A stretch of 64,000 nt of DNA from Nitrospira sp. (lineage in GTDB: Bacteria > Nitrospirota > Nitrospiria > Nitrospirales > UBA8639), in the NCBI GenBank assembly GCA_024760505.1, contig CP058931.1, positions 352,136-416,135 on the forward strand, in the 5' to 3' direction. Below, piece after piece: positions 37,469 to 59,578 of the stretch (position 1 is the stretch's first letter; the number at the start of each line of letters is the position of its first letter). The notes under the pieces were generated by a model. The model was not told the DNA's origin. It saw only the letters and a list, made by a program, of their open reading frames with translations, and did no database searches. The translations under genes were made by a program, and so were the position numbers.

Positions 37469-38521
37469 ATGATTTATCTCAACCCGGCTGGACTCGCTCC
37501 ATTCCATCCTGACGTGCAGCAGGAAATTTCCCGGACACTCGACACGTTCAGTCAATTGTTATATGCGGAAGCCGGCATTCAGTATTACCGGGACACGCTT
37601 CAGGAATGCCGACGGACCATTGCGGATTGGTTGAGGTTGAAGGATGAACAACGGCTCGCCTTCATGCCCAATACCACAACTGCATGCAGCCTGGTCCTTT
37701 CTCGGATCAATTGGAAACCTGGAAATGTCCTTCTGACCACCACTCATGAAAATTCCACGATTCTCAATGAAATCGACAAACTCAGTGCCCGTGGAGTCCG
37801 CGTTATTACACTCGACCCGGATGTCCCCTCCGGCTTCCTTCCCGCGCTTGAACGCATTCTAAATGAACAACCCATTCAGGCCATCGTCATCAGTCACGTC
37901 TCTCATTTTGATGGGCGTATCTTTCCCATCACCGCAATCCAGGACCTGACGCAGTCACATTCCACGCTGCTCATCGTAGACGGGGCACAAGCCATTGGAC
38001 ATATTCCGGTTTCTTTTCAGGAGATTTATCCCTATGCGTATTTTTTCCCTGGCCATAAATGGTGCACAGGCCCAATGGGAACAGGTGCGCTGATTGTCGG
38101 GAAAGACCGTCACCAGGAAACGCAACCCTATTGGGCCGAATACGAATTGGGCACCCAGAATATTGGCTTGATCGCCGGATTTGCCAAAGCGTGCCATCTC
38201 AAGGCTCAACAAGATCCACACAACCACATCCTTGAACAGGTGCGAAAAGAATGGAAAGTCTGCCTCGGACACTATCCTGGCCTTCGGATTATCGAATGGG
38301 ACGGGGCGCATGCTCCCGGCATCTTATCGTTTGCCTGCCTTGACGAACATACGGAGCAGGCTATGCACACCCTTTCCTCCACTCATTCCATTGCCTGGAA
38401 AACCCTCACACATCCCTCACATCCCTCAAACCTTTCGATCCGTATCTCATGGTCAACCGACACATCAAGTGTCGACATCCGTTCGACCCTTGCATTGTTT
38501 TCCTCACTCTCAAACGAGTGA
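37469..38521 (+). CDS. Class-V aminotransferase / cysteine-desulfurase-fold PLP enzyme (possible EgtE-like C-S lyase)
   Basis: PLP-lysine context FFPGHKWCTGPMGTGALIV and LIVDGAQAIGHIP. Located 92 nt downstream of egtD on the same strand. Confidence 0.7.
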   Translation: MIYLNPAGLAPFHPDVQQEISRTLDTFSQLLYAEAGIQYYRDTLQECRRTIADWLRLKDEQRLAFMPNTTTACSLVLSRINWKPGNVLLTTTHENSTILNEIDKLSARGVRVITLDPDVPSGFLPALERILNEQPIQAIVISHVSHFDGRIFPITAIQDLTQSHSTLLIVDGAQAIGHIPVSFQEIYPYAYFFPGHKWCTGPMGTGALIVGKDRHQETQPYWAEYELGTQNIGLIAGFAKACHLKAQQDPHNHILEQVRKEWKVCLGHYPGLRIIEWDGAHAPGILSFACLDEHTEQAMHTLSSTHSIAWKTLTHPSHPSNLSIRISWSTDTSSVDIRSTLALFSSLSNE

Positions 38522-38550
38522 GGCCCCCTACACATCACATAGGGGGCCTC
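38520..38550. terminator. Hairpin between convergent genes (possible bidirectional terminator)
   Basis: GAGGCCCCCTA-cacatcaca-TAGGGGGCCTC, an 11-bp perfect stem. It overlaps the stop of the PLP enzyme gene and lies 56 nt from the caspase gene stop. No clear U-tract on either side. Confidence 0.5.
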
Positions 38551-38605
38551 AGGGTGTCATCACCAAGAAACGGAGGAACCTTTCCTTGGCTTATCTGTTT
38601 GTTCT

Positions 38606-40870
38606 CTATGGTTGAACCAGAACCGTAACCGAAACCGCCGTCCAATCAGAGATCGGCAACCCAACCGGCATGGCCTGAGCGTCCAAATGATTAGAAGGAT
38701 CAGGTGGAAAAGATTCCGCAGGGCGGTCTTGAATATATCCGATGCTTTCGGGCATGGAATTTTGGGGCGGCAGTTGATCGACCATGGCCAATGGCGTTTG
38801 TTCCACAGTGCTCATAGCGGACTGGGAAACCGGAGCCACGGAATCATCAGGAACGGTAATCAACCCTCGAGTCACACTTCCGACTAACTCCTGCCTCAAA
38901 CTGGCCAAGTGGGCTAAGGAGTTGGTGCTTTGAGGACTCCCAATGCCCTGGGAATTGCCACCCGCCACCGCCTGGCGAATCCGTTGGGCCAATTCAGAAG
39001 TCGTACTCGCAAAAACCCTGATCGTATCCACGCCCGGAGGATTCGCATAATCAAAATGGAATCCCGCTTGATTTCCGGATTGCAATGAATCGGGCAACAA
39101 GACCGTACGGCCCGCCTTGATGAAGCCATCAGGATAATACCGTGGATTTTGATAAGAATTGGGGAACAACACATTCACGTTCCCTTCCGCGTCCACATCC
39201 ACGATCGTAATGTACGCATCCGTATCGGAAGTGACTTCCAATTGCAGACTGTTAGACAACGACCGGGGTTCATTCGCCTTCCGGATGTGATAGACCGGGG
39301 CCTCCATTTTGTCGCTCACCACGGCGATCCCCCGCTCTCCGACCTGAACCACCCGCACACTCACGCTCATCTGACTCGTAGGGTTTTCCAGGTTCAGCAG
39401 TTGCGACGCATTCCGTGACTGCACCAACACTTGAGACAAGGCAGCAATCGCTTGAGTCCCGGGCTTTGCAGGCAATGACATCAACTCCATGGTGCCATCC
39501 GCGCTCAAGACATGCAGCCCGTCCCCCCGGCTTTCTACAATGAAGCGGGCGAATTCCTGATCTCCCACAAATTTCACATCACCCATTTGCTTCCCCAGCA
39601 ACTCTTTCAATTGCTTGGCTTGCACGGGTGGAACATTTCGAAGAGCAACCGGAATGGCCTTGGACTCAGGAGCCGGAGCGACGAGAACCGCACGGCTTTT
39701 CGAAGATATTTCGGCTTGTTTCGGCGAAATCACCGCTACGGCATTCTGCCCGTCCGACGCTTGCACTACCGCAAAGGCCTGGGCTTTCGCCGGATCAAAT
39801 GCCACTTCTCCTTCCGGATAGATGCCCCATACCGAACCGGGATCGGCTCCGAGCGAGAGGGCGTTCACTAACTGTACATAACCCCCTGTTTGCGGTTGCA
39901 CCGCCACCCAGGAACGACGGGCGGAACCGGTCTGCGCCTTCACGAGGCCCGGCGGTTCGGCAAGAGCCGAAAAGAATGGCAACTCCATTCTTGCCTTAGA
40001 AGCTTCAAGCTGAGGTTCGGGCATACTGGTCCGCCCGAATTGATTTTGAATCCGCTTGAGTTCCTGTTTGGCTCCGGAAAAAATCTCGCGGGTCGACGCA
40101 CCCATGGGAGCGGATTGTAAACTCTTGAAGAGGGAGTGGGTAAAAAATCCATGGTATCGGCCGTCCACCGGCCCATCCAGGGCCTCTTCATGGGAAGCCG
40201 CTCCACTGAATAGCACATACGAATGAAGATTCACCGGCACAATGGCCCGTGTCGCCACTCCACCTTTTTTATACAGATTCACCCGACGATCCGCCGGAAC
40301 GGATCGCACCCGCACTTCCAACCCCCTTGTGGCAGTCCCGGAATGACAGGAATCGAGAACAACGACCGCCTTGGACGTTTTCAATTGTGACAGGATCTCG
40401 TCCAACTCATCATCGGTAATATCGGGAACGCCTTCCGTCCGGCCATCAGCCGGAACAATCGTCTCATCCAATTGATCATCCAGCTCATCTCCATTCAGAT
40501 CCTCAACCTGAGATCCATGTCCTGAATAATGAATGTAGACCACATCATTGGGACCGGCTTCTGTCACAATCCGATGTAAACCGGCTAGGACCCCCTCCCG
40601 GGTTGCTGCTTCATCCCGGATAATGTGGATATCCTGTTCGGCAAACCCATACCGTGACAGCAGGACCTGATGCACCAAATCAATATCATTTTTTGATCCA
40701 GGGAGCTGTGGCAAAACCTGATATTTTCCAATGCCGATCAAGAGAGCTCTTTTGACCGAAGGCGCACCAGCCCCGAATGCCGCAGGCATTGTCACGATCA
40801 ACGTATGCCCGACAAATAGAACGACAGTTAAAAGAAGGAGCAGTGTGGGGGAAAATGGGCACCTTTTCAT
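38606..40870 (-). CDS. Caspase-family (peptidase C14) protein with C-terminal DUF4384-like domain, N-terminal signal/anchor
   Basis: His/Cys dyad contexts VYIHYSGHGSQ and VVVLDSCHSGT. C-terminal segment LQLEVTSDTDAYITIVDVDAEGNVNVLFPNSY...GVDTIRVFAST matches the DUF4384 pattern. I prefer the start MKRCPFSPTLLLLL at 40870 (AAGAGG RBS). Confidence 0.8.
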   Translation of the reverse strand: MKRCPFSPTLLLLLTVVLFVGHTLIVTMPAAFGAGAPSVKRALLIGIGKYQVLPQLPGSKNDIDLVHQVLLSRYGFAEQDIHIIRDEAATREGVLAGLHRIVTEAGPNDVVYIHYSGHGSQVEDLNGDELDDQLDETIVPADGRTEGVPDITDDELDEILSQLKTSKAVVVLDSCHSGTATRGLEVRVRSVPADRRVNLYKKGGVATRAIVPVNLHSYVLFSGAASHEEALDGPVDGRYHGFFTHSLFKSLQSAPMGASTREIFSGAKQELKRIQNQFGRTSMPEPQLEASKARMELPFFSALAEPPGLVKAQTGSARRSWVAVQPQTGGYVQLVNALSLGADPGSVWGIYPEGEVAFDPAKAQAFAVVQASDGQNAVAVISPKQAEISSKSRAVLVAPAPESKAIPVALRNVPPVQAKQLKELLGKQMGDVKFVGDQEFARFIVESRGDGLHVLSADGTMELMSLPAKPGTQAIAALSQVLVQSRNASQLLNLENPTSQMSVSVRVVQVGERGIAVVSDKMEAPVYHIRKANEPRSLSNSLQLEVTSDTDAYITIVDVDAEGNVNVLFPNSYQNPRYYPDGFIKAGRTVLLPDSLQSGNQAGFHFDYANPPGVDTIRVFASTTSELAQRIRQAVAGGNSQGIGSPQSTNSLAHLASLRQELVGSVTRGLITVPDDSVAPVSQSAMSTVEQTPLAMVDQLPPQNSMPESIGYIQDRPAESFPPDPSNHLDAQAMPVGLPISDWTAVSVTVLVQP

Positions 40871-41148
40871 GATAAACCTCTTATCAAGCCTGCCGTGGAA
40901 TGGATCCATAGTCTATCGGTCTTTGTGTCGTCTCTCAACCTTTTGTTATGTGGTAAGTCTCCCCATTTCCCCAAAAGGTTCAAAGGCAACCATAAGAGAC
41001 AACCAATCAACCCTTCATCATTGTCGAATTCATACATGGCACAGAGGGGAGATGGGGTATGGCGCATGATTCAAAGTCAACGCTAAACAGCCGCTGTCCC
41101 TTCCAACAGGCTCGCCTATTGTCTTCTGAAGCCTCCTCCCCTATGCTA

Positions 41149-41174
41149 GAAAACCAATTGACATGGTCATCGTC
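41149..41174 (+). promoter_or_regulatory. Candidate ECF-type promoter (GAAAAC-N16-CGTC) upstream of the ECF sigma gene
   Basis: GAAAAC (41149-41154), a 16-nt spacer, then CGTC (41171-41174), 69 nt upstream of the ATG. Resembles the AAC...CGT autoregulatory promoters of ECF sigma factors. Motif match only. Confidence 0.3.
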
Positions 41175-41242
41175 GCTTCTGACAGCCCACTCCCAGGGAG
41201 CGCAACGGCTAGATCTGCAGCTGAAATTGAACCACCCGCCCC

Positions 41243-41827
41243 ATGAGCTCGACCAACTGGCAGGACCTCACGGATTCAGACTTGCTCCAATCCTGCATCC
41301 CGAATAACCAGGAAGCCTTTGCTATCCTCTATCAACGATATGAAAAACGGGTATTCCAATACCTCATGACGATTCTGAATGAAGCGACATTAGCTGAGGA
41401 AACCTTAGTGGAAGTCATGCTGGCCATATGGAAAGGCCTCCAGACCTTTCAAGGACAATCAAAAGTTTCCACCTGGATTTTTGGGATTGCCCATCATAAG
41501 GCCGTGGACGCTCTGCGCAAAGTCACCAGCCTGCAAAGGGGCGGCATACCATTGGAGGACATCGTCGAGACAGCAGCGTCCAATGAAAATCCGTTGAACG
41601 ATACACAACAGAAACGGATGGCTGAACTCACCAACCAGGGACTCATGACCTTATCACCGGATCACCGGGAGATTTTGCATATGGCGTTCTTTGAAGAACT
41701 CTCCTATCCGGAAATTGGAAAATTATTAGACATTCCGGTTAATACGGTAAAAACGCGAGTGTACTATGCCAAGCAGCAGCTCAAAAAGAGTCTCCAGCAC
41801 CAGGGAGTGACAAAGGAAATTATTTAA
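41243..41827 (+). CDS. ECF-family RNA polymerase sigma factor (sigma-70 regions 2 and 4)
   Basis: Region 2 (FAILYQRYEKRVFQYL ... FQGQSKVSTWIFGIAHHKAVDALR) and region 4 (EILHMAFFEELSYPEIGKLLDIPVNTVKTRVYYAKQQLKK). Confidence 0.9.
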   Translation: MSSTNWQDLTDSDLLQSCIPNNQEAFAILYQRYEKRVFQYLMTILNEATLAEETLVEVMLAIWKGLQTFQGQSKVSTWIFGIAHHKAVDALRKVTSLQRGGIPLEDIVETAASNENPLNDTQQKRMAELTNQGLMTLSPDHREILHMAFFEELSYPEIGKLLDIPVNTVKTRVYYAKQQLKKSLQHQGVTKEII

Positions 41828-41832
41828 ACGAG

Positions 41833-42525
41833 ATGGAACCCGAAGAGCCGATTCATACCGAGGCAACCCTCCTCCCGGGCTATGTCAGCCGAACGCTGAC
41901 TACCAAGGAGCGCGAAGAGGTCGAACTTCATTTGGAATCATGCGCCTCCTGCCGGCAGGACCTTCAGGAGACCAAGAGCATGCATACTGCATTACAAACC
42001 GCCATCGAAAAACGGCCAGGGCCTTCACCAGCAGCTTTTGCCGAGGTCATGCGCCGTATTCAACAGGAATCTCAATCAGCGCCAACAACCGTTCGGCAGG
42101 GACAGGAGAACTCCTGGTGGGAATCGATTGAAAGAACCTTTCGTTCACTGTTCGAAGTCCGATGGGCTCCGGCCCTGGCCAGCCTATTGATTGTCGGACA
42201 GGCAGTCCTCTTGCTCTCAGTTCTCGGAGGGCCGGAAGGAGAGATTACACCTGGCTCAAGTCCGGTGATTGAACGAGGCATTCCACCAGGAGCTCCAGGA
42301 ATCCCGCGCATTAAGATTCAGGTCACATTCGTCGAAACCGCACAGGAAATCAATATTCGTCGCCTGGTGCAGGGCCTGGGCGGGCAAATAATACACGGCC
42401 CAACACCCGAAGGCTTGTATACGCTAGGGTTTGAACACAAAGGAACCGATTCTCGGGAATCCATCTTATCCGCTCTCAACGCCCATCCAGACCTCATCAA
42501 CACAGCCACAGCTCTCCACCCTTGA
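41833..42525 (+). CDS. Anti-sigma factor (zf-HC2 N-terminus, one TM, periplasmic C-domain)
   Basis: HLESCASCRQDL is the H-x3-C-x2-C zinc motif. TM WAPALASLLIVGQAVLLLSVLGG. Located 5 nt downstream of the ECF sigma gene. Confidence 0.75.
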   Translation: MEPEEPIHTEATLLPGYVSRTLTTKEREEVELHLESCASCRQDLQETKSMHTALQTAIEKRPGPSPAAFAEVMRRIQQESQSAPTTVRQGQENSWWESIERTFRSLFEVRWAPALASLLIVGQAVLLLSVLGGPEGEITPGSSPVIERGIPPGAPGIPRIKIQVTFVETAQEINIRRLVQGLGGQIIHGPTPEGLYTLGFEHKGTDSRESILSALNAHPDLINTATALHP

Positions 42526-42662
42526 ACCTTTGGGGTGTTCCTCTCGACTGACTCTCCAACAACAGCCTCGGGCAGAAAGGTCCAACTGAAATCGTGAATT
42601 TGCCCTTTCGGCAAGCAAAACCTAGAATAAAATCGAGCTATTGCTACTGATTGGAACAACCC

Positions 42663-44165
42663 ATGCCACCATCGCACCGACAGATTTATTTTGGCTCCTA
42701 TGGTCTCACGATGGCGGCGATGACGACTATCATGGGACTGTCATTCTTGTTTCCATCATCCGGACGGACGGGCTTTCTGGATAACGCCCTGGATTTTGGA
42801 AAGGATCTCCTGGGCAAAGCGGCGAGCAATTACTCAAAAAAATATGAACAAAAATTAACCCGATTGCTCCAATCCCTGCGTCAACCGGTAGTGGGCAATC
42901 AACCCTTCATTCAGGGCATCACACCCGGCAACCCCTATGACCCCAATTCGTTCGGTGGTCAAAATCCCTATGACTCGAACGGTTCCTACGGCACAACCAA
43001 ACCTAACTATGACAATCAATGGAATCCGTACGGACAAAATCCCGGATATCCTCAGGGAGCTCAACAGGGTGGCTATGCCGGGCATCCCCCTGGAATGAGC
43101 TATCCGACCGATCCCAATTATGCCGGATATCCCCCTGGCGATCCCAATGCCTATTCGCAGGGCCAAGGCTCCTATGACCCCTATAATTCCAACCAGGGCT
43201 ATCCTTCCGGTGGAGGCTATGGGCAATATCCGAACCAGACATCTCCCGCAGATCCAAATTCTGGCAATAATCCCTATGGTCAATTCCAACCATACGATCA
43301 GAGACAGGGAGGGTACCCGTTAAACGACCCAAATAGAGGAAGCGCCGGCTATCCCTCGACCCCTTATCCCCGGCAAGGAGGACAAAACCCTTCCTATCCA
43401 TATGGTGGAGAGCGATACCCTGGACAGCCGGATCCACTCTCACCGCAAGGCAGGTATGACCCTTATCAACCACAAGCTCAATCTCCGCAATCACCGGCAT
43501 ATACTCAACCCGGATCCCCTTCATATCCTTCCAACCCGAGTGTGGAACCACCAACACCACCGGCCATTGGGCTCGTTGAAGGACTTAAACTTGACGTCGC
43601 CCTCGTCAAAAAAACATTCGTCAACGGAGCCGAAACCCTTACACCAATTCAAGATGGGGATATTCTGAAAGACGGCCGCGGCAATGCAAAGACTGGGGAG
43701 AAATTCCGGATGATGTTCAGGGCAAATACCGATTGTTATGTCTATGTCATTGCCATTGACGGATCCGCCTGGGCGCAGGGGGTGTTTCCCTCGCTTACGT
43801 CGCCTTTCGCCAATCCCATCAAGCAGGGGCAACAATATGTCATCCCGGATAACAATAATTGGTTCAGCCTGGATCAATTCAAAGGAATTGAAACCGTTTT
43901 CTTTGTGGCCTCACCGGACAAACGTCGAGATATTGAAGAGATCCTGGCGAGCATTGGGGGACGGGAACGCCATCCCGCAACCACACCCCAACAGATTACC
44001 GAAGCACCGATCATTCCGGCAGGATTCTATGGACGCCAACAAAGCACCACACCTTTTACCATTGAGCAGAGCAGCGCCTCAGACCAGGATGTGATGCCGA
44101 CCACCTACTTCACCCAAAAAGCCGGCGAGGCCTTACGAGTCACTCGATGGTTCCGACACGAATAG
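42663..44165 (+). CDS. Membrane-anchored protein: conserved N-helix, ~225-aa Y/G/Q/N/P-rich low-complexity region, C-terminal DUF4384-like domain (paralog 1 of 3)
   Basis: C-terminal KFRMMFRANTDCYVYVIAIDGSAWAQGVFP...WFSLDQFKGIETVFFVASPD fits the DUF4384 pattern. Ends in LRVTRWFRHE. Low-complexity region at nt 42882-43562. Confidence 0.75.
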   Translation: MPPSHRQIYFGSYGLTMAAMTTIMGLSFLFPSSGRTGFLDNALDFGKDLLGKAASNYSKKYEQKLTRLLQSLRQPVVGNQPFIQGITPGNPYDPNSFGGQNPYDSNGSYGTTKPNYDNQWNPYGQNPGYPQGAQQGGYAGHPPGMSYPTDPNYAGYPPGDPNAYSQGQGSYDPYNSNQGYPSGGGYGQYPNQTSPADPNSGNNPYGQFQPYDQRQGGYPLNDPNRGSAGYPSTPYPRQGGQNPSYPYGGERYPGQPDPLSPQGRYDPYQPQAQSPQSPAYTQPGSPSYPSNPSVEPPTPPAIGLVEGLKLDVALVKKTFVNGAETLTPIQDGDILKDGRGNAKTGEKFRMMFRANTDCYVYVIAIDGSAWAQGVFPSLTSPFANPIKQGQQYVIPDNNNWFSLDQFKGIETVFFVASPDKRRDIEEILASIGGRERHPATTPQQITEAPIIPAGFYGRQQSTTPFTIEQSSASDQDVMPTTYFTQKAGEALRVTRWFRHE

Positions 44166-44173
44166 AGTTTTCA

Positions 44174-45613
44174 ATGAAGACACAGACACGATCCACCATC
44201 GCCACGATCCTCATCTCAGCCATGCTGGCTTCATGCTCCACTCCCCAAGGACAGGGTGACTTTTCGCAGAGCATCCCCTGCCAGTCCGGCAGTGCACAAT
44301 TGACCGAAAGTCCAATGGCATCGTTTGCGAAACAGGTCATTCTTAATCCGCTGGCCAATATCGGAGGCACGCTGTTGGCAACCGCTGCGGCAAATTACAG
44401 CCAACACTATACAGACAACTTAAATACGCTCCTTACCAAACTCGTCACACCGAAAAAGAAAAAGAAGAAGCAGTCTGATCAATCTTACGGTGACCAGGGA
44501 TTCCAGCAGGGCCAACAAATCGATCCCTACACGGGCCTTCCGGTTCAGATTGATCCCTATACGGGTCTTCCTATTCAAACCGACCCGAACACCGGCCTGC
44601 CGCTCCAGGTTGATCCCAATACCGGACTCCCCATGGAAAACCAACAAGGGTTTGATCCCGGACAATTTCCTGGAGATCCCAACTACGGGTATGGCGGGGC
44701 ACAACCCTTCAATGATGGAACATCACAATACGGATTTGATGCAAACTATCCACCTGTCCAAGGGCGTGGAGTACCGGGGCAGCTACCCCACGCAAGATTT
44801 CCCTCAACCCCTTGCGACCAGGAGGCGAACCCGCAGGCCTTCCAGGCCGGCAATTCACAAAACCAACCTTACGGCTACGATCCCAATGTGGCGCAACAAG
44901 ATTATCCTCAAGATTCGAATGCGCAGGGCTATACACAAGCAGATCCTTATGCCCAACAAACCTACCCGCAAGACTCCTATACGCAGACAGGACCGGAGAC
45001 AGGAGTCCAAACCCAGGAGACAGGAACTCCGATCGGATTGGATGTCATCATGGTGAAGAAAGCTATTCGAAACGGAGCTCCGGTGGTCCTCCCGATTCAA
45101 GACGGCGACGTCCTCAGAGACGGACGCGGGAATGCGGCGGCGGGCGACAAATTTCGGATCATGTTCAGGCCCAACAGCGATGGTCATGTCTACGTTATCG
45201 CCATTGACGGTTCAGGCTGGGCGCAAGGCATCTTTCCGCCGCCAACGGCTCCCTTGGCGAATCCGGTGAAAGCAGGCGAGCAATACGTAATTCCCGAAGG
45301 CAACAACTGGTTTAGCCTTGATCAATTCAAAGGGATTGAAACCATCTTTTTCGTCGTGTCGCAGGACAAGCGGCAGGATATCGAAGAAATCCTCCAAAGC
45401 ATCACCGGGCACGAACGTCCGGCATCCGAAAGTCCCCATCAGGTGACCAAAGTAGCCATGGTACCCAATGGGGTCGGAGGAACCCGGCCGAGCGCCAAAC
45501 CGTTCGGCCTCCCGGAAGGGTCAGGTCCGGATCACGCCATTATTCCCACAAGTTATCTGGCACAACAGGCCGGGCAGGATCTGCGGCTCACTCGCTGGTT
45601 CCGCCACGAATAG
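44174..45613 (+). CDS. Lipoprotein: low-complexity region + DUF4384-like domain (paralog 2 of 3)
   Basis: Lipobox ISAMLASC. K6 tract, four 10-aa repeats and a Q/P/Y/D-rich region (nt 44447-45028). C-terminal KFRIMFRPNSDGHVYVIAIDGSGWAQGIFP... Ends in LRLTRWFRHE. Confidence 0.75.
   Translation: MKTQTRSTIATILISAMLASCSTPQGQGDFSQSIPCQSGSAQLTESPMASFAKQVILNPLANIGGTLLATAAANYSQHYTDNLNTLLTKLVTPKKKKKKQSDQSYGDQGFQQGQQIDPYTGLPVQIDPYTGLPIQTDPNTGLPLQVDPNTGLPMENQQGFDPGQFPGDPNYGYGGAQPFNDGTSQYGFDANYPPVQGRGVPGQLPHARFPSTPCDQEANPQAFQAGNSQNQPYGYDPNVAQQDYPQDSNAQGYTQADPYAQQTYPQDSYTQTGPETGVQTQETGTPIGLDVIMVKKAIRNGAPVVLPIQDGDVLRDGRGNAAAGDKFRIMFRPNSDGHVYVIAIDGSGWAQGIFPPPTAPLANPVKAGEQYVIPEGNNWFSLDQFKGIETIFFVVSQDKRQDIEEILQSITGHERPASESPHQVTKVAMVPNGVGGTRPSAKPFGLPEGSGPDHAIIPTSYLAQQAGQDLRLTRWFRHE
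44519..44638 (+). repeat. Four tandem 30-nt (decapeptide) repeats inside paralog 2
   Basis: IDPYTGLPVQ / IDPYTGLPIQ / TDPNTGLPLQ / VDPNTGLPME, read directly from the translation and the DNA. Confidence 0.85.
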
Positions 45614-45699
45614 GGTGGAAAATGCATCGGCCACCAAGATAAGCATGGCGTCATTTCATTAGATAGTTGGCTGGTATACACCTGACCTTCAACTCTTCA

Positions 45700-46962
45700 A
45701 TGACTCACTCCCCCCCACGACGTCCCTGGCTGCTCATGGGTACGAGCCTTCTCTTCAGCGGTTGTATGGCGCTCCCCTTTTTAATTCCCCCACTCGTAGA
45801 ATTCGGGGCCAACCTCTTGAGAACAGCGGTTAACAATTACGGGGACGCCCATGAACAAAACATGGAACACCTGCTAGTGGCCCTTCAACAACGGAACAAT
45901 CCAATGATATCCCAAGGCATTATTGCTAATCCTTATGGAAAACCCGGCGGCGTTCAACAAACGGCGTATCCCGATCAGGGTTACCAGACTACGCAAGGAT
46001 ATCCCGCTCCTCAGAGATATCCATCCTCTCCAGCCTACCCTCAACAACCGTATGACCCTTATCAAAATCAGCAGCCGCAATACGCCGGGAATGGTCCCTC
46101 TCCGAATAACCCCTACCCGGACCAAGAGCAACAAGGAAATCCCTATTCCACTAATCCTGTCTACCCCAACCAACAAGCCTCGGTCCCAGGATATTCCTCC
46201 GCTCCACAGAATCAATATCCTCAGCAAAGCCAACAGGCCAATGCCTATCCGAATACTCAGACTATGTATCCCAATCAGCAGAATCCGTACCCGAATCAGG
46301 CGCCCAATCCGAATCAACCACCAGAGACTCCCGAATACCAGACCGCTCAGCTGGAAATAGCACAGACCAGCCCCGTGCCGATCAGCCTGGATGTGCTGCT
46401 GGTCAAAAAGCATATGGTCAATGGGGTGCAGTCCTACCTGCCCATTAAGGACGGGGACATCCTTCTGGATGGCAGAGGCAATCCGCAGGCGGGTGATAAA
46501 TTTCGTGTCATGTTCCGCGCCAATACCGATTGCTACGTGTATGTGATTGCGGTGGACGGATCGGCCTGGGCTCAGGGAATTTTCCCGACAGCCTCCAGCC
46601 CGTTTGCCAACCCGATCAAAGCCGGTCAGCAACATATTCTCCCGGAAGGAACGAATTGGTTCAGCCTGGATCAGTTCAAAGGGATCGAAACCATCTTCGT
46701 GGTGGCATCCCGCGCACCGCGCCAGGATATCGAACACATTCTGACGACCATTACCGGGCGCGAACGAAGTCCGACCGAAAAACCCCAAGCAGTTAGCGAA
46801 CCCGCGATCATTCCCAATGGTTATTCCGGTGCACGTCCAGGTTTATCTCCCTTTGCATTTCCAACCGCACAAAACCAGCAACAGGAATTACTTCCCACCA
46901 CCTACTTTGTCAAAACCGCCGGCGAAGACCTCCGCATCACCCGCTGGTTCCGTCATCAGTAG
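45700..46962 (+). CDS. Lipoprotein: low-complexity region + DUF4384-like domain (paralog 3 of 3)
   Basis: Lipobox LLFSGC. Q/P/Y/N-rich region (nt 45889-46341). C-terminal KFRVMFRANTDCYVYVIAVDGSAWAQGIFP... Ends in LRITRWFRHQ. Confidence 0.75.
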   Translation: MTHSPPRRPWLLMGTSLLFSGCMALPFLIPPLVEFGANLLRTAVNNYGDAHEQNMEHLLVALQQRNNPMISQGIIANPYGKPGGVQQTAYPDQGYQTTQGYPAPQRYPSSPAYPQQPYDPYQNQQPQYAGNGPSPNNPYPDQEQQGNPYSTNPVYPNQQASVPGYSSAPQNQYPQQSQQANAYPNTQTMYPNQQNPYPNQAPNPNQPPETPEYQTAQLEIAQTSPVPISLDVLLVKKHMVNGVQSYLPIKDGDILLDGRGNPQAGDKFRVMFRANTDCYVYVIAVDGSAWAQGIFPTASSPFANPIKAGQQHILPEGTNWFSLDQFKGIETIFVVASRAPRQDIEHILTTITGRERSPTEKPQAVSEPAIIPNGYSGARPGLSPFAFPTAQNQQQELLPTTYFVKTAGEDLRITRWFRHQ

Positions 46963-47041
46963 CCTAAACTACAAATGAAATGATGAAGATTGAGTGTATG
47001 GAAACTTCATTGCGGCCATTTGAAATAAAAAGGTTTTTCTT

Positions 47042-48010
47042 TTGGGAGCCGGGTTTAACCTTGACGCCAATTCATTGGTTCCCCCATATCAAGCTACAAA
47101 TTTTGCCGGACAAAAATACGAAATTCTCGGCCACTATCCAAACATGGAGAAATTAGCTTCTCTTATTTTTCCTGGTGAGACAGTTACAAATTTTGAGGCT
47201 AGGTTAGCCCAGGCAATTGAGGAGGTTGACAAAAATCGGTTGGCGAAATTTGTGGATACATTGATGGACGCCGACCATTATATAGGTGGTCGGTTGAAAG
47301 GAAACAACATTTATCAACGTTTTCTCAGATATTGCGGCCCTACGACGCTTCTAAGTTTTAATTATGATGCCTTTCTTGAAATCCAGTTATTTAAACAGGA
47401 CCTTTGGTACCCTCAGGACGGTTTTGGTGTTTCAGCCTATATTGAAGTTCCCCTAAATATTGAATATTCATCGAAAACTAAATCAACCTCCAAAGTCTTA
47501 CATTTACACGGGACATACCTTCTTTATAGTGTTGATTTTGAAATCTCAGAGCCTGACATGCACAACATAGGTCGGGTAAATCCTGCAGCTAAACCCAAAT
47601 ATATATTCGATCCGGAGCGTTTGGTGCATGATTTCCCTCCTTATGTTTCCCCGCCCGTCTCCTATGGATACAAACAACTTCAAAATAGGATCATCGCACC
47701 CCTGCCAGATAAGTCTACAGGTCTTACCGAACCCTATATTCAAGAATGCTATTCCAAAGCCATTGAAGAAGTTAGGCAATCGGATTATCTCGTGGCCATT
47801 GGATATAGCTTCGCAAAATCTGATGAAAAATCCTATGGTCCACTTTTAGGAACTTTCAGGAACCGAAGAGGAAGCGATGGGAAAATCGTAATCATAGATC
47901 CCCAAGCGGAAAATATTGCAATTCGATTGCGGGAAGAATTCCCTGGAAGGTATCAGCCTATTCCCCTCAGCTTCGCTAATTGGGTTGAACACAATTTCCC
48001 GCTTCAGTAA
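47042..48010 (+). CDS. SIR2_2-like (sirtuin-fold) domain protein, N-terminus uncertain
   Basis: LGAGFN (Rossmann Gly motif), LLSFNYD (TNYD-like), KVLHLHGTY (catalytic His context) and YLVAIGYSFAKSD. The only in-frame start is a TTG placed directly on the Gly motif. See the finding at 46983-48900. Confidence 0.6.
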   Translation: MGAGFNLDANSLVPPYQATNFAGQKYEILGHYPNMEKLASLIFPGETVTNFEARLAQAIEEVDKNRLAKFVDTLMDADHYIGGRLKGNNIYQRFLRYCGPTTLLSFNYDAFLEIQLFKQDLWYPQDGFGVSAYIEVPLNIEYSSKTKSTSKVLHLHGTYLLYSVDFEISEPDMHNIGRVNPAAKPKYIFDPERLVHDFPPYVSPPVSYGYKQLQNRIIAPLPDKSTGLTEPYIQECYSKAIEEVRQSDYLVAIGYSFAKSDEKSYGPLLGTFRNRRGSDGKIVIIDPQAENIAIRLREEFPGRYQPIPLSFANWVEHNFPLQ

Positions 48011-48194
48011 CTTTATAAATAGTCTCCCAATTTTCCAACGCCTGTTGCCCGTTCCCATGGTCGAACGCTCGTATCAAGCGGCAGGACTTACTGGTTTTGG
48101 GTCATTTTGCCGGACCAAAACCCAGCCTTTTTCGTTCATGTACATAATTTAGAGGTGGTCCTAGGAATTTGGACAGGGTGTTAGGCTACAATTT

Positions 48195-48431
48195 GTGACC
48201 AAAGGAGAGTCATGGATTATTAGTCGAACTCGAAAGAATCATCCTGCGAATTTCAAGGCTAAAGTCGCGGTGTCTGCGCTCAGGGAGGATGCGCCGATAT
48301 CGGAGCTGGCGGTGAAATATGGCGTACATGCCACCGTCATTCATCGCTGGAAACGTGAAGTCCTGGCCTCCATGGAGGCGGGGTTTTCAGGAAAGCTTGA
48401 AAAGAGCAACACCGAGCACGAGGCGCACCTC
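48195..48431 (+). mobile_element. IS3-family transposase OrfA remnant (N-terminal HTH part only)
   Basis: RKNHPANFKAKVAVSALREDAPISELAVKYGVHATVIHRWKREVL resembles IS3/IS911 OrfA. Similarity is lost after about aa 79. GTG start, and no intact OrfB follows. A possible OrfB scrap (NMVMESLSNTLRQ) lies on the opposite strand near 48710-48760. Confidence 0.6.
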
Positions 48432-49060
48432 AGAGGTGGTCCGGGACGTTTTACTCTCAAAGGCATGGAACCACCCACGGCGCTCACTGCAGCAAGCCTT
48501 TTTTTTTCCAAAATGAAAAAACGCGCCATGGGATGGTGCCCCGATTACTCTTGCAATTGCAGCTGTCAATCGATAACTTTCCAGAAATTTGTGGGTCGAT
48601 GGCCAAAAACTCTTGAAAAACAACGGAGAGCCGGATAGATACCCAATAAAAATGTGCTATAATCGGCCCCAAAATGTCCTTGAGTACGAACACATTCTCA
48701 CTTAGTCAGCTAAGCCGTGAATTGCCTCAAGGTATTGCTCAAACTTTCCATGACCATATTTTTGCGTGCGACCATCTCCAATGGCTTTCCTGCCCACAAA
48801 GTCCAATGATAGAAAGCGATCAAGGTCTCTCGCTTCTGGATTGTCCTACGATAAATTCCTCCTCTTCCCTCAGTTTTGCATACCCCCATATAGTACAATT
48901 CACGATGGAACCCAGATCACGCAGGGGGACCATCTCCCTCTTAGGCAACGCAAAATAACCTTCCCCATTGAGCATTCCTTCTTAGGTTTTTTCCTCAGTG
49001 GGATATTTTATATGGGTAGTTTCAGTTTCATAATCTTCTTACTAAACGGGAGCGTCAGTG

Positions 49061-52970: not shown

Positions 52971-53303
52971 ACAGATTTGACCGGGACCTCACCACCTCTG
53001 GACTATCCACCACCAGGCACCTGCCTACCTCAGCACTGCGTTGATCCCCCACTACCCATTTCCGTCTAATCTCAATTTCTTTTCTTTTTCGTCTCCACAT
53101 TGCATGGCCCAATTTCTGCCTCAACGCATCAGACTGGATTGCCCTACTCTTTTCCGATAAGATCCCCCATTCCCTTACAACCGGGCGCAAGGAATGGCTA
53201 CTGTGATGAGCGTTCATCAGAGATGAACCATTTCCTTGTTTCTTTCGACAAATAGACAAGAGCACACCGATATTCACTCATTCATGTCACGGAAGGAACC
53301 ATC

Positions 53304-55115
53304 ATGCGATTTCTTCGAATCCTACGATCTACAGTCCTAATGATAGGCCTCGCGATAATGATATGCTTCTACACCAGTGCGCAGGCTAGTGATTCCCTGA
53401 ATATCCAGACGATCCTATTAGAAAAGCCGGTCTACTTTACGACGGTCATTGGAGACGAGGCTCTCCTCCAGCCAGGAACCTATGAGATCCTTCCCTTGGC
53501 TGACAGCCTGCAAGTGAGTTCCCAAGATGCAAAACCACCCATCCAATTGGCCATCACCTTGGACACACATGATCAGGACTTGCGTGATCCCGTGGCCGTC
53601 TCTGTTCCCGGCATACCGGGGGGAGATTCCGCTGACCGCCATGTGCTGGCACTGTTCCTACCAGGCGGGCTTGCCTATGAAGCTGAAGGCACCTATAGCG
53701 GCATTCGCTCCCGCGCAGTTGATCCGCAATCCTTGATCACGGATCCCATGAAAATTTATCTGGAGAAACCGGTACATTTTATGAGTCCTGATGGAAACGG
53801 CCTTGAGGTGCCGATTGGAACCTACACCGTGGAGAATGCGGGAGAAGGGATTCGGTTAATGACTCCTGAAAAAGAGGAGGGCCTACTTTTGGAAGCCCAA
53901 CAAGACACAAATGATGGAGCTCTCGAGACCTCGGTCGCTCTGTCTTTACCGGGTGACGCCGAAGAAGAAGCCGATCTGCATTATATCGTCCTGATGGCGC
54001 CTACCGGAGAAAGCTTACAGGCCTTCGGGACCTATAGCGGCATTCAACAACGGGGACTCTTTCAAAATATTGCCAAAGGGGCGAAGGGAACCGTAAACCG
54101 CGCGAAAAGCACCGTGAATCGGGTTGGGCAGGGAGCGAAGCGCGCAACCCAGCAAATCGGGAAAGGCATCCAACAAACCGGACAGAACGCAGGCCAGTTC
54201 GCTCAAAAAACGGCATTGGAAGCCAAGAAAAAGGCTGAATGGCTGGCCAGACAAGCCGCGCAAGGTGCCCTGATCGCCGCCAAAGCAGGATGCAAGGCCG
54301 GCCTCACAGCTACACGCATTGCGGCAGAAGTTCAAGCCAAAATTTTAGGGCCAATAATGGGAGCATTGGCCAAGGCCCTGCAGATGGATAAAACGCAAGC
54401 AGCCCTTCGCCAAGCCATCAACACCATCAAACAACAACAGGGACCGGCCATTCAACAGGCCATTACCGCCGGATTGAGACTCACTGATCCCCAGAATGCC
54501 CAAGCGGTCAACCAGATGATGGATCCAAACCGGATGTGCGAAAAACCTGCGGCCACAGTCCAAGACACATTTCAGAAGATGGTGGGAGCTCCGTTACGAG
54601 CGGCATTGAACGAATCGCAAAACGCGAATAGTTCCGGTATCCGCTCTCGAGGATCCGTGGCCTCAGCCAACATCGGCATCGGGGGAAATTTGGCCAAAAT
54701 CGGAGGAGGCGAATTGGGTGTCAGTTATGCATTTGATTTTGTGAACCAGCCCCATTGGTACCTGGATCTGGCTGCCATGGTCAAAACCAATATCGGCGGA
54801 GGCGGAGGAGTTTCAATTGGCATCTTTCCACGAGTCAATCCGGATACTGTCGGGGGATGGTTCCTTGGCGCTGGAGTGGGTTTTCCTTTCCCCCATCCCA
54901 AGCTGGCAAAAGTCATGGATGCCGGCCTGGACGTCTTTTTTGATTTCCCGCTTCGGATCGAACCGCCCTTCAGGCCGAAATGGGATTTGACCTCAGCCAA
55001 ATTCTTTTTAGACCATTTCCAGGGATTTGCCATAAGCGTTGGCGCGGGAAAGAGCGCTTCGCCTGTCGATATTGCACTTAAGGGCGGTGTGGGCATCCGT
55101 TTGACAAAGCCTTGA
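53304..55115 (+). CDS. Secreted protein with two copies of an unannotated ~105-aa module, a helical K/A/Q-rich middle and a Gly-rich beta C-terminus
   Basis: Signal peptide ending SAQA. Modules at nt 53400-53717 and 53745-54056 end in GTYSGIRSR and GTYSGIQQRG. A third SGIRSRG occurs further on. Confidence 0.7.
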   Translation: MRFLRILRSTVLMIGLAIMICFYTSAQASDSLNIQTILLEKPVYFTTVIGDEALLQPGTYEILPLADSLQVSSQDAKPPIQLAITLDTHDQDLRDPVAVSVPGIPGGDSADRHVLALFLPGGLAYEAEGTYSGIRSRAVDPQSLITDPMKIYLEKPVHFMSPDGNGLEVPIGTYTVENAGEGIRLMTPEKEEGLLLEAQQDTNDGALETSVALSLPGDAEEEADLHYIVLMAPTGESLQAFGTYSGIQQRGLFQNIAKGAKGTVNRAKSTVNRVGQGAKRATQQIGKGIQQTGQNAGQFAQKTALEAKKKAEWLARQAAQGALIAAKAGCKAGLTATRIAAEVQAKILGPIMGALAKALQMDKTQAALRQAINTIKQQQGPAIQQAITAGLRLTDPQNAQAVNQMMDPNRMCEKPAATVQDTFQKMVGAPLRAALNESQNANSSGIRSRGSVASANIGIGGNLAKIGGGELGVSYAFDFVNQPHWYLDLAAMVKTNIGGGGGVSIGIFPRVNPDTVGGWFLGAGVGFPFPHPKLAKVMDAGLDVFFDFPLRIEPPFRPKWDLTSAKFFLDHFQGFAISVGAGKSASPVDIALKGGVGIRLTKP

Positions 55116-55182
55116 GAAGTTCCGGCCTTTGGGCCAAAAATATTGGGAATGAGCGATTTCGTGCCTCAAGAAACCTTCCCAA

Positions 55183-55210
55183 CGGGGAGCCAAAAGGCTC
55201 CCCATTTTTT
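55183..55210 (+). terminator. Rho-independent terminator
   Basis: GGGGAGCC-aaaa-GGCTCCCC followed by ATTTTTTT, 68 nt after the stop at 55115. Confidence 0.7.
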
Positions 55211-55452
55211 TGTCGAAATTTCATTGCTGCTCAATGGAAATCGGGAAAATGCTTCGATTCGTAATTACACTTTTCATCAATTATCGTGTGCAGAGTTCGA
55301 TGTTCAAAAGGGAATCTTCGGCACGCCATGTAAGCCACGCACATATTTCTCAACATGCTTTTCTCCACACAACCTCAAAAGGGCCTATGATACGAATAAT
55401 TCAGGAACCGCCTACCCCTCGCGATATCATCCCTTCGATGCTCTAGACCCAT
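55194..55452 (+). repeat. Copy 1 of a ~260-bp direct repeat flanking the TA module
   Basis: Aligns with 56229-56488 at roughly 75% identity by eye. The conserved core is TTCAAAAGGGAATCTTC.GCA.GCCA...AAGCCACG.ACATATTT.TCAACATGC. No convincing ORF on either strand. Confidence 0.7.
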
Positions 55453-55646
55453 GCTCTCAACCGTGGACAGCCCCTCATTGCCATAATGTCACTATGCCGA
55501 CCAGCATATCACGCCAATTCTACGCTGACGAAACAGTTGACAGCCCTGTAAAATCAGACGAGAATCGCGGCATAATTATTGGCCCATTAGGAGAGCGATA
55601 TACCGGTCAGCATACTATGTTTCATGAAAATAGGAGGGACAACAGG

Positions 55647-55856
55647 ATGAGTAGCACTAAAGAGCTATTAGATGAGGCAATGAAACTAAAACCAGAGGAA
55701 CGGTTTATCTTAGTTGAGGGCTTGATAAAGAGCCTGGATGAACCAGACAAGAAGCTGGATGAAATCTGGGCTGAGGAATCAGAAAACAGGCTCAAAGCCT
55801 ATCGGGAAGGAAAGCTGGAAGGCATTCCAATGCAGGAAATTTTTAACGAAGAATGA
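55647..55856 (+). CDS. Antitoxin, 'putative addiction module component' family
   Basis: MSSTKELLDEAMKLKPEERFILVEGLIKSLDEPDKKLDEIWAEESENRLKAYREGK is the typical pattern of this antitoxin family. GGAGGG RBS. Its stop overlaps the toxin start (ATGA). Confidence 0.75.
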   Translation: MSSTKELLDEAMKLKPEERFILVEGLIKSLDEPDKKLDEIWAEESENRLKAYREGKLEGIPMQEIFNEE

Positions 55857-58957: not shown

Positions 58958-59578
58958 TCGACCGGTGCAGGCGCCGGTCTCACCACGCGCTGCATCTGAC
59001 CGATGGGCCTTGGACGCTTTCCGAGGTTCGAAGCTCCTCCAGCACCCGCCGGCAGATGAGTATTTTCTTTAGGTATGAAATCGAAACCACGTGGTGAGAG
59101 GGAACCTGGGGAATTAGGGCCAGACTCGAATTTTCACGAAAATTTTCCTTTGGGAATTAATTGACTCCGCCCACAACTATTTCGGATGCCTGCAGCCAAC
59201 CCGAGACTGAGGATCTTGCGGTTATTATTGATTCGGAGTACCTTTCTCCAGCCAACCTTATGAAGGGACTTATGGTCCAAGGGATGCTTGGGTATGCTAG
59301 TGGCCTTATTGACTCCTTCCTTCTGTCTCTTCACTCCCTTCGGGCGGTACCGCCACGGGTGTGATCCTCCGGGTTTACCAACTCTAACTTCCCTCCCTCA
59401 CGTCGGCCTCCTTGGCGAGCTACGTTCTTTTGTTCCCAATTCAAAAATTTCGGAATTTTCATGTTTTTCACATCGGCTTAGGGACATTGAACCTTTTGAT
59501 AATCCCCTACGACCCACCCACCAGACAGTCAGGCTCTCCTGAGTTTCCAGACATAAGATTCAGGAAGGAAAGGCAAAG

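Follow-up and report, generated by a model that had tools for sequence, protein, structure and literature searches.

The window analysed here, a 64,000-nt stretch of DNA from Nitrospira sp., contains at positions 38606–46962 six adjacent genes encoding a caspase-like protease, a sigma factor of the extracytoplasmic function (ECF) type, a zinc-finger anti-sigma factor and three paralogous proteins that end, like the protease, in a DUF4384 domain. They belong to a system that is real, conserved and uncharacterised; its synteny, motif statistics and domain identities are computed results. With moderate confidence we read the six genes as the core of a conserved, self-regulated envelope signalling and proteolysis module. 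The metacaspase-type protease would act both as the site-1 protease of the anti-sigma factor and as the maturase of secreted module-cargo proteins, with the DUF4384 lipoproteins as its partners and not its substrates. An earlier note on this DNA had proposed a regulated proteolytic or assembly module at the envelope. The conserved unit, in which all products other than the sigma factor are predicted to be extracytoplasmic, agrees in part with that proposal, but the substrate role would pass from the paralogs to the anti-sigma factor, the protease itself and the module-cargo proteins.

Genes, domains and conservation of the locus

A check of the open reading frames (ORFs) of the window returned all six at exactly the coordinates of the earlier note, and the domains claimed there (C14 plus DUF4384, ECF sigma, zf-HC2 and three DUF4384 paralogs) were all confirmed by Pfam and NCBIfam. 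The genes and their main domains are:

ORF 38606–40909, likely 38606–40870, minus strand: predicted secreted metacaspase-type protease (Pfam PF00656 and PF14326, 69-sequence alignment, AlphaFold)
40010–40753, minus strand: Peptidase_C14 domain of the protease, aa 53–300 (Pfam, alignment, Yca1 match)
38999–39250, minus strand: DUF4384 core of the protease, aa 554–637 (Pfam, E 7.5e-19)
41243–41827, plus strand: ECF (group 4) sigma factor, 194 aa (Sigma70_r2, Sigma70_r4, Sigma70_ECF, TIGR02937)
41833–42525, plus strand: single-pass zinc-finger anti-sigma factor, 230 aa (Pfam zf-HC2, 62-orthologue alignment)
42651–44165, plus strand: DUF4384 paralog 1, 504 aa (PF14326; DUF4384 core nt 43689–43919)
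44147–45613, plus strand: DUF4384 paralog 2, 488-aa ORF (PF14326; DUF4384 core nt 45140–45367)
45667–46962, plus strand: DUF4384 paralog 3, 431-aa ORF (PF14326; DUF4384 core nt 46489–46719)

The caspase ORF comprises 767 aa and its likely start, judged from the start position of homologues, is M14 (MKRCPF..., nt 40870). For paralogs 2 and 3, translation probably begins at M10 (nt 44174) and M12 (nt 45700), respectively. A gap of 333 nt separates the divergent caspase and sigma genes, 5 nt lie between sigma and anti-sigma and 125 nt between anti-sigma and paralog 1, the ORFs of paralogs 1 and 2 overlap by 19 nt, and 53 nt separate paralogs 2 and 3.

The protease consists of a signal peptide, the C14 domain, two middle domains, the DUF4384-containing domain, a disordered segment and a terminal beta strand. 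Both Pfam families score above their gathering cut-offs, PF00656 at aa 53–300 with E 1.8e-24 and 87.2 bits (cut-off 21.4) and PF14326 at aa 554–637 with 68 bits (cut-off 27). The intact His/Cys dyad that the earlier note had recognised in HYSGHGS and DSCHSG is present as His131 (nt 40517–40519) and Cys188 (nt 40346–40348), both invariant in the 69 aligned homologues. The best relatives in the Protein Data Bank (PDB) are metacaspases, namely Yca1 by sequence (E 8e-34) and AtMC9 by Foldseek (E 2e-14), with AtMC9 and AtMC4 as the top Foldseek matches of the AlphaFold model (predicted local distance difference test, pLDDT, 69.5; predicted template modelling score, pTM, 0.63). In addition, DSCHSG and the acidic cluster DLNGDE..DD..DE align with DSCHSG and DLDGDE-EDGMDD of Yca1. 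These likenesses suggest a metacaspase-type enzyme with Arg or Lys as its P1 residue. In metacaspases, cleavage is confined to sites behind these two residues, and the preferred tetrapeptides of AtMC9 include VRPR (PMC10235996); cutting behind Arg or Lys is likewise described for metacaspases and orthocaspases together (PMC6426788). The N-terminus of the protease forms a hydrophobic helix, followed in homologues by A-x-A-like sites. Full-length relatives of the caspase-DUF4384 protein number over 1,200.

The sigma factor is matched by Sigma70_r2, r4 and r4_2, with no sigma-3 match; it reaches 93.8 bits against TIGR02937 (cut-off 42.9), and no equivalog-level model was reached. The zf-HC2 domain (PF13490) of the anti-sigma factor spans aa 13–41 (E 2.2e-8, 34.5 bits) and its zinc ligands read from the sequence as H33-x3-C37-x2-C40, while matches to the NCBIfam anti-sigma models stay below cut-off. 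A hydrophobic stretch places its transmembrane helix at about aa 110–132 (nt 42160–42228). Outside the membrane a Pro/Gly-rich linker leads into an alpha/beta periplasmic domain of about 80 aa, which makes about 95 periplasmic residues in total. This domain contains residues conserved in the 62-orthologue alignment, and Pfam found no CHAT or TPR match in the protein. The anti-sigma factor, with its zinc finger and single membrane pass, thus probably keeps the sigma factor at the inner membrane. Together with the N-terminus of the protease and the lipoboxes of the paralogs, this topology suggests that the partners of the sigma factor are all extracytoplasmic.

The three paralogs are 47–48 % identical to each other overall and all match PF14326 (E 1e-10 to 2.5e-11; 43.9, 44.0 and 41.7 bits, gathering cut-off 27). 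The layout that the earlier note had described for them (anchor, helix, low-complexity linker, DUF4384) was borne out by the alignments and the model. Likewise, the lipoboxes it had seen on paralogs 2 and 3 (LASC with Cys30 and FSGC with Cys33) are conserved in orthologues. Paralog 1 has a signal-peptide-like N-terminus without a lipobox Cys. The DUF4384 proteins are therefore predicted to be lipoproteins and, in one case, a soluble periplasmic protein. Directly after the anchor comes a conserved amphipathic helix, ..EF[AG].NLL.T...NY...Y...L..L (pLDDT ~93). The linkers that follow are 180–500 aa long in the family and consist of P, Q, G, Y and N to 57–83 %, with only 0–2 % Lys+Arg. The C-terminal domain of about 190 aa is beta-rich (pLDDT >90) and closes with a strand formed by the invariant tail TRWF[RK]H[EQ]. 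In the AlphaFold model of paralog 3 the helix occupies residues 48–74 (pLDDT ~93), residues 82–230 are disordered and the domain extends over residues 240–431 (pLDDT >90). The 81-aa DUF4384 of Pfam is thus only the core of a larger domain.

According to the earlier note, the protease and the paralogs share the same DUF4384-like domain. Both do match PF14326, but the kinship between the two cores is remote, with 26 % identity and a BLAST E of 7e-6; hhalign aligns the protease DUF4384 with the paralog domain at a probability of 86 % (E 5e-6). Foldseek gave no significant PDB match for the paralog domain, the best being RhoGDI and ML-type Ig-like sandwiches at E 0.07. CagX, PilP and Csx30 are absent among the 50 Foldseek matches listed, and the paralog profile matched no solved chain among the PDB sequences, the Craspase-Csx30 entries included. 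From the model, the fold can be called a beta-sandwich and no closer. The named sources of the 65 matches for the paralog module are all Nitrospirota, except for one Tectimicrobiota protein.

Conservation was assessed with one genome per GTDB species, which gave 79 loci whose ORFs were called and searched with pieces of the six window proteins. Synteny was counted in the 60 species-representative loci whose sequence reaches 4 kb or more upstream of the caspase gene. Sigma and anti-sigma genes adjoin the caspase-DUF4384 gene in 56/60 loci (93 %) and at least one detectable paralog is present in 53/60 (88 %). The combination of sigma/anti-sigma pair, caspase and paralog is complete in 51/60, in agreement with the co-occurrence expected by the earlier note. 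Independent gene contexts show the same association. None of the three outcomes that it had set beforehand as refuting (C-terminal domains without a match to DUF4384 or each other, lack of co-occurrence in related genomes, and a caspase domain without activity-compatible residues) was found.

Two layouts occur. In type A, the layout of the window (18 loci), the caspase gene is divergent from sigma, anti-sigma and paralogs, its product is at least 59 % identical, and three paralogs occur in 14/18. In type B (38 loci), sigma, anti-sigma and caspase are co-directional, a single long paralog is divergent, and the caspase is ~45–50 % identical. The locus is syntenic across the whole order Nitrospirales, caspase identity falling from 95 % to ~45 % over the retrieved genomes, and several Steroidobacteraceae and other Gammaproteobacteria keep the sigma/anti-sigma/caspase string. 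The genes stay together through rearrangement and across phyla, so their association is functional and no accident. A search centred on the anti-sigma factor, addressing whether the pair occurs without the protease, returned only relatives of at least 47 % identity and is hence not independent.

Promoter motif, candidate cleavage sites and proposed mechanism

Alignment of the divergent intergenic regions brought out an ECF-type motif, TTGAACC-N16-(C/A)GAC-NN-AC. The window holds four exact matches against 0.00 expected from shuffles. The relaxed form, TGAAC(C)-N16-18-(C/A)GAC-NN-A(C/T), has five matches against 0.3 expected, all before genes of the system. One precedes the caspase gene, one lies at the sigma start, one precedes paralog 1, and the remaining two stand upstream of further ORFs, 53304–55115 and 59579–60637. 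The unit is thus larger than the six genes to which the earlier note had confined it. The promoter features and the two additional genes are:

40953–40982, minus strand: ECF-type promoter motif upstream of the caspase gene, TGAACCTTTTGGGGAAATGGGGAGACTTAC (57/74 loci)
41119–41147, plus strand: sigma-70-like promoter TTGTCT-N17-TATGCT, ~95 nt upstream of the sigma ATG (conserved in type A loci)
41228–41257, plus strand: ECF-type promoter motif overlapping the sigma start (49/66 loci)
42523–42552, plus strand: ECF-type promoter motif upstream of paralog 1, TGAACCTTTGGGGTGTTCCTCTCGACTGAC (46/57 loci)
53224–55115, plus strand: promoter motif (53224–53253) and 603-aa secreted protein (53304–55115), predicted regulon member and substrate
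59488–60637, plus strand: promoter motif (59488–59517) and 352-aa secreted protein (59579–60637), predicted regulon member and substrate

Ahead of the anti-sigma gene the motif is found in 1/60 loci, and in front of later paralogs in 0/34, with a chance expectation of ~0.025 per region. Its distribution suggests that it is the cognate promoter of the locus sigma factor and that the protease and the DUF4384 proteins form its regulon. Upstream of sigma, the alignment of 24 type A intergenic regions contains a conserved block, TTGTCTT...CCTATGCTA. A generic scan for sigma-70 promoters and terminators gave counts at or below shuffle level, and Rfam had no match across 38000–48500.

The sigma ATG lies in the spacer of the overlapping promoter at the same offset in 48/48 loci, which puts the -10 CGAC in codons 3–4. 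Codon 3 reads NCG throughout, whichever of Ala, Ser, Thr or Pro it encodes, and codon 4 reads ACN throughout; it is thus at the DNA level that the -10 element is conserved within the sigma coding sequence (codons 3–5). There is no conserved alternative start after this promoter in sigma. Full-length sigma could not be encoded by its transcripts, although the anti-sigma factor and the genes behind it could be. The promoter may therefore provide negative feedback, as a device for expressing these genes alone.

A short motif with a hydrophobic residue at P4 and Arg at P1 recurs in the anti-sigma factor and in the protease, at these positions:

42265–42279, plus strand: predicted site-1 motif V145-I-E-R148/G149 in the anti-sigma factor, 16 residues outside the membrane (62 orthologues)
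40244–40315, minus strand: disordered loop after the catalytic Cys with VRVR202/S and VATR221/A, candidate autoprocessing sites (pLDDT <50)
39329–39343, minus strand: VGER526/G in the protease, in a disordered loop immediately ahead of its DUF4384-containing domain (51/69 homologues)

In the anti-sigma linker the Arg is present in 62/62 orthologues and [IV]xxR[GS] in 61/62, the gammaproteobacterial ones included, with P3 and P2 varying freely (IE, ST, TT, IS, YE, VP and others). In the protease, the R202 motif is found in 67/69 homologues; at R221 the Arg is conserved in 69/69 and the full motif in 44/69. Residues 513–522 of the protease model have pLDDT <50. The combination of hydrophobic P4 and Arg P1 fits the VRPR preference of AtMC9.

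The same ending is found in the module-cargo family. These proteins are secreted and carry one or two beta-rich N-terminal modules of ~110 aa, for which Pfam has no model, ending in ..LEA.G[ST]YSG[IV]xxR/G. The 603-aa protein, itself without a Pfam match, has two modules ending GIRSR137/A and GIQQR250/G, followed by Lys/Ala-rich helices and a Gly-rich hydrophobic tail. The 352-aa protein has one module ending GIQTR186/G, followed by a PAN domain, and the next ORF (60703–61380) contains a weaker module copy. Relatives of the module number 562 among 1.84 billion cluster representatives. Of the best 150, an independently retrieved set of 142 has the module start at median residue 28; 155/167 of the complete modules in this set end in [IV]xxR and 147/167 in [IV]xxR[GAS]. 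The cargo behind the module varies: Amidase_2, PI-PLC-X, Lcl_C, TIG, Big_7, PAN (PAN_4) and unannotated Lys/Ala-rich and Gly-rich tails. Further module-cargo genes lie in loci L001 (11297–13030), L056 (3426–4631 and 6859–7932), L013 (1358–3052) and L063 (2157–4571), and many genes of the family are preceded by the ECF-type promoter motif. A docking domain shared among the parts was considered and rejected, as hhalign found no similarity of the secreted module to the anti-sigma periplasmic domain, the C-terminal part of the protease or the paralogs. Similarly, no similarity was found between the anti-sigma periplasmic domain and the protease C-terminal part or the paralogs.

In the proposed mechanism, a housekeeping promoter would make the sigma factor and the anti-sigma factor would hold it. 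The exported protease would activate itself at the [IV]xxR/[SA] sites in the disordered p20/p10 loop and make the site-1 cut in the anti-sigma factor after the invariant Arg of [IV]xxR/[GS] (R148). Intramembrane proteolysis would then free the sigma factor. No S1/PDZ or M50 gene occurs among the annotated ORFs of the window, to which this check was confined, with no search aimed at a site-2 protease. Besides the protease and the DUF4384 proteins, freed sigma would also raise expression of its anti-sigma factor and of the module-cargo proteins. From the latter the protease would strip the N-terminal module at G[IV]xxR/G, thereby freeing the cargo (cell-wall amidase, phospholipase C, PAN domain, Gly-rich tail). 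The DUF4384 lipoproteins would not be cut but would act as partners of the protease, tethering or gating it by contacts between DUF4384 domains.

Weighing the alternatives

Several points weigh against this mechanism. Every biochemical step in it we infer from comparative sequence analysis and two AlphaFold models. The Arg/Lys specificity of the S1 pocket was read from the alignment alone, and the promoter motif was assigned to the sigma factor by its position and ECF-like form only. The promoter overlapping the sigma start misfits simple positive autoregulation, full-length sigma not being encodable from it. The motif [IV]xxR[GAS] is short and averages 1.5 matches per anti-sigma protein, so only its positional conservation carries weight, and the conserved anti-sigma Arg could be kept for a structural reason or for another protease. 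Module-cargo genes lie within 10 kb in only 22 of ~80 loci, and many have no detectable promoter motif. The weakest part of the model is the role of the DUF4384 lipoproteins as tethers or gates, and a poly-Lys run in paralog 2, described below, could itself be a cleavage site.

The main rival, which we regard as possible though doubtful, is an output-only reading. In it, some other envelope signal would reach the sigma/anti-sigma pair through the periplasmic domain of the anti-sigma factor, and release would come from a different protease or a change of conformation. The caspase and the DUF4384 lipoproteins would only carry out the response, for instance by maturing secreted proteins or remodelling the envelope, with no feedback on signalling. 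The sigma-type promoters of the caspase and first paralog genes would be expected of such effectors, and the anti-sigma factor has its own folded periplasmic domain, with conserved residues and dissimilar to the protease and paralogs, that could be the sensor. However, the protease gene is co-directional with sigma and anti-sigma in 38/60 loci and the trio persists in Gammaproteobacteria without a detected homologous paralog, a position typical of regulatory partners. In addition, the anti-sigma linker shares [IV]xxR/[GS], in 61/62 orthologues and with variable P3/P2, with the protease loops and the module ends. A version built on the earlier note, which had named the paralogs as putative substrates or partners, takes them as the substrates of the protease, recruited through the shared DUF4384 and cut in or near the linker so that the C-terminal domain is freed from its anchor; it appears unlikely. 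It can draw on the DUF4384 common to protease and paralogs and on some type III-E Csx30 substrates of the caspase-like Csx29, which have a DUF4384 C-terminal domain behind a flexible linker. Moreover, paralog 2 orthologues in type A loci carry a conserved run of about six Lys (LVTPKKKKKK; window 44400–44440, aa ~92–98) right after the membrane-proximal helix, and metacaspases also cut after Lys. This run is nevertheless confined to the paralog-2 type and absent from the single paralog of type B loci. Furthermore, no paralog alignment column conserves [IVL]xx[RK][GAS], the best (28/85) lying inside a beta strand, and the linkers contain almost no Lys or Arg over their whole length. Because they lack a conserved copy of the motif and have hardly any of these residues in their linkers, the paralogs are proposed as non-substrates.

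An anti-phage or programmed-cell-death system of known kind, EACC1-type or another catalogued caspase defence, is improbable. The PADLOC 2.0 component sets gave a generic caspase match with E 3e-20, but it covers only positions 5–130 of a 453-position profile, and no other component matches; there was no EACC1-type neighbour match, and the sole further hit was a weak PDC-S21 match on a non-conserved ORF (47042–48010). The NCBIfam match to the EACC1-associated caspase type (NF047832) is sub-threshold, with 68.8 bits against a cut-off of 140. WD40-C14, Sel1-C14 and TPR-CHAT genes do recur nearby, some with the same promoter motif, the cargo is in part of a lytic type (amidase, phospholipase C), and protease-licensed death effectors are a common defence logic. 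Against this, the protease and its partners are predicted to be exported, no NTPase or other sensor domain is present, and the locus is syntenic across the whole order and not patchy like defence islands. The genes flanking the unit in the window are, likewise, housekeeping ones (EgtD-like, aminotransferase, MdoG/H).

A bolder extension of the preferred mechanism, which we offer tentatively and think rather doubtful as a whole, is a periplasmic caspase cascade. An envelope insult or phage attack would lead the metacaspase to cut the anti-sigma factor, and the sigma factor would amplify the protease in a switch-like loop damped by the promoter that expresses anti-sigma but not sigma. The protease would then unleash exported pro-effectors (amidase, phospholipase C, Gly-rich membrane-active tails) at G[IV]xxR/G, with DUF4384 as a dedicated docking domain. 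If true, the cascade would be the extracytoplasmic counterpart of caspase-licensed effectors such as gasdermins and EACC1, and could mean programmed lysis, killing of kin or competitors, or drastic envelope remodelling in nitrite oxidisers.

If the preferred mechanism, with the metacaspase as site-1 protease and maturase, is correct, it would define an order-wide ECF pathway with a predicted promoter, regulon and cleavage motif. It would also give a first functional context to DUF4384, a domain fused to caspases and kinases and present in some Csx30. The secreted N-terminal module, found in hundreds of 50 %-identity clusters and lacking a Pfam model, would be new and would resemble a pro-domain removable by a protease. 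Finally, two current themes would reach the periplasm: ECF sigma factors set free by caspase-like proteases, and latent effectors that need a protease to license them.

Related systems and surroundings of the locus

In E. coli, RseA is cut near the membrane by DegS (site-1) and then by RseP (site-2), which releases sigma-E, and the operon members are autoregulated. Regulated intramembrane proteolysis of RseA resembles what is proposed here: a membrane-near periplasmic site-1 cut of a single-pass anti-sigma factor, after which a site-2 protease acts and an ECF sigma factor is freed. In contrast, the site-1 protease for RseA is a PDZ serine protease activated by the C-termini of outer-membrane proteins, whereas the candidate of the locus is a metacaspase with DUF4384 that is itself a predicted sigma target.

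DdvA/DdvS of Myxococcus xanthus combines a transmembrane zinc-binding anti-sigma factor bearing a periplasmic TPR-CHAT caspase-like domain with an ECF sigma factor (PMC11506125). Site-1 autoproteolysis of DdvA in its flexible juxtamembrane linker, ahead of RseP-type intramembrane proteolysis, was proposed there but not shown (PMC11506125). The locus shares with it an ECF sigma factor, a single-pass zinc-finger anti-sigma factor, a periplasmic caspase fold with a His-Cys dyad and a flexible juxtamembrane linker as the proposed site of the caspase-like cut. In DdvA, however, the caspase-like part is a CHAT domain on the anti-sigma factor, whereas the protease of the locus is a separate secreted protein of the C14 metacaspase branch without TPR. 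The anti-sigma factor of the locus, with 230 aa of which ~95 are periplasmic, does not carry the TPR-CHAT region of ~900 aa that defines the DdvA type. The locus also adds DUF4384 lipoproteins and module-cargo proteins, and its predicted regulon consists of envelope proteins, as opposed to the island of CBASS (cyclic-oligonucleotide-based anti-phage signalling) and CRISPR genes controlled by DdvS. If the preferred mechanism is correct, it would offer a stand-alone test case for the unproven DdvA idea that an anti-sigma factor receives its site-1 cut from a periplasmic protease of the caspase fold.

The type III-E Craspase system comprises Cas7-11, Csx29 (TPR-CHAT), Csx30, Csx31 and RpoE (bioRxiv 10.1101/2022.08.17.504292; PMC10028731). 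In this system the target of Csx29 is Csx30, which is cut while bound to RpoE, and in one group of Csx30 proteins the C-terminal domain is a DUF4384. Here too a caspase-like protease is coupled to an ECF sigma factor, and the cleaved Craspase partner is made of two parts on a flexible linker. In contrast to the locus, Craspase is cytoplasmic and RNA-guided, its protease is of the CHAT type and Csx30 itself binds sigma; in the locus, the sigma factor would be held by a zf-HC2 anti-sigma factor, and DUF4384 is found on the protease and on exported lipoproteins. None of Cas7-11, Csx29, Csx30 or Csx31 is present among the Pfam-annotated ORFs of the window, in which CRISPR arrays were not specifically searched.

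Protease-effector anti-phage modules pair EACC1, Pepco, MBL or alpha/beta-hydrolase effectors with linked caspase-like or serine proteases, and EACC2-caspase neighbourhoods often include an ECF sigma factor (PMC12642450; PMC7159879; PMC8195603). As proposed for the locus, a dedicated protease licenses latent effectors by a site-specific cut, and a constant part is fused to variable effectors. These modules are cytoplasmic, are coupled to STAND or other sensors, and EACC1 is cut after Asp. In the locus, the parts are exported, the input would be the ECF sigma/anti-sigma pair, the predicted P1 is Arg and the constant module is a beta-rich one of ~110 aa without a Pfam model.

C14 metacaspase genes in predicted operons with a sigma-70-family sigma factor were recorded by Asplund-Samuelsson et al. 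2012, recurring in Myxococcus, Anaeromyxobacter, Haliangium, Sorangium, Ralstonia and Fibrobacter (PMC3501461). That survey records only the recurring arrangement, with no anti-sigma factor, DUF4384, promoter, cleavage motif or mechanism, and it is by arrangement alone that the locus is likened to it. The literature searched contained no relevant link of ECF with Peptidase_C14 or of metacaspase with 'extracytoplasmic function', and no study of the locus in Nitrospira or relatives. The claim of the earlier note that no characterised system has this composition holds for that literature, although the concept has precedents in the metacaspase-sigma operons, DdvA and Csx30. The unit is set apart from the DdvA, Craspase, EACC1 and PADLOC systems because it departs from each in at least one defining feature. 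It is therefore an extracytoplasmic, metacaspase-based version of protease-gated ECF sigma and protease-licensed effector systems, with DUF4384 partners.

In Gammaproteobacteria, the slot of the paralogs is occupied by proteins of 447–515 aa with a signal peptide, a P/Q/Y-rich sequence, a hydrophobic helix and a beta domain ending in ..NIVFHHR or ..NILFRHR. Their ORFs are:

L062, 7307–8737: paralog-slot protein
L063, 7271–8737: paralog-slot protein
L064, 1250–2593: paralog-slot protein
L067, 6818–8365: paralog-slot protein
L077, 6620–7774: paralog-slot protein

Those of L062–L064 and L077 are preceded by the ECF-type promoter motif. Their similarity to the paralogs is not significant (E 0.2–0.9 for L062, L063 and L067), and they were treated as analogues only. 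In the Tectimicrobiota locus L005, a 133-aa helix-bearing ORF stands upstream of a 177-aa DUF4384 ORF. This pair was set aside as evidence for a helix-domain interaction, as the end of the first ORF looks out of frame, probably by a frameshift.

Further caspase-family genes are found within a few kb of the system in many genomes, but none in the window:

L003, 13343–15466: Sel1-C14 gene
L004, 4283–6349: Sel1-C14 gene
L005, 12025–14016: Sel1-C14 gene
L065, 6241–8445: Sel1-C14 gene
L033, 1709–5731: WD40-C14 gene
L034, 2521–5661: WD40-C14 gene
L028, L029 and L037: WD40-C14 genes
L062, 4676–7291: TPR-CHAT gene

The WD40-C14 genes of L028, L029 and L037, three type B loci, carry the ECF-type promoter motif, and the extra caspase-family genes in L003 and L005 adjoin an autotransporter-type barrel gene.

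In the window, the housekeeping flanks of the unit are EgtD/EgtE-like genes upstream and MdoG/MdoH downstream. Downstream of the core cluster come a weak SIR2_2-like ORF (47042–48010), a transposase N-terminal fragment judged by eye (48195–48638), an antitoxin-like gene (Unstab_antitox; 55143–55856) and a GmrSD-type restriction endonuclease (57182–58360), which suggests that a small variable or defence-like patch separates this cluster from the module-cargo genes. The SIR2_2-like ORF was ruled out as a member of the system, being conserved in no related locus. Nitrospira and its relatives oxidise nitrite in soils, waters and wastewater plants. A nitrite-oxidoreductase-like locus (NxrA/NxrB-like) at 12668–20402, encoding a molybdopterin subunit of 1150 aa, a 4Fe-4S subunit of 447 aa and a bd-like oxidase of 661 aa, identifies the source of the window as a Nitrospira-type nitrite oxidiser. 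Sigma-54 activators are encoded near it at 21841–23364, 24756–26318 and 29079–31022. Further upstream, at 1886–6784, is a 1632-aa ORF whose sole match is a weak one to multicopper oxidase (Cu-oxidase_3).

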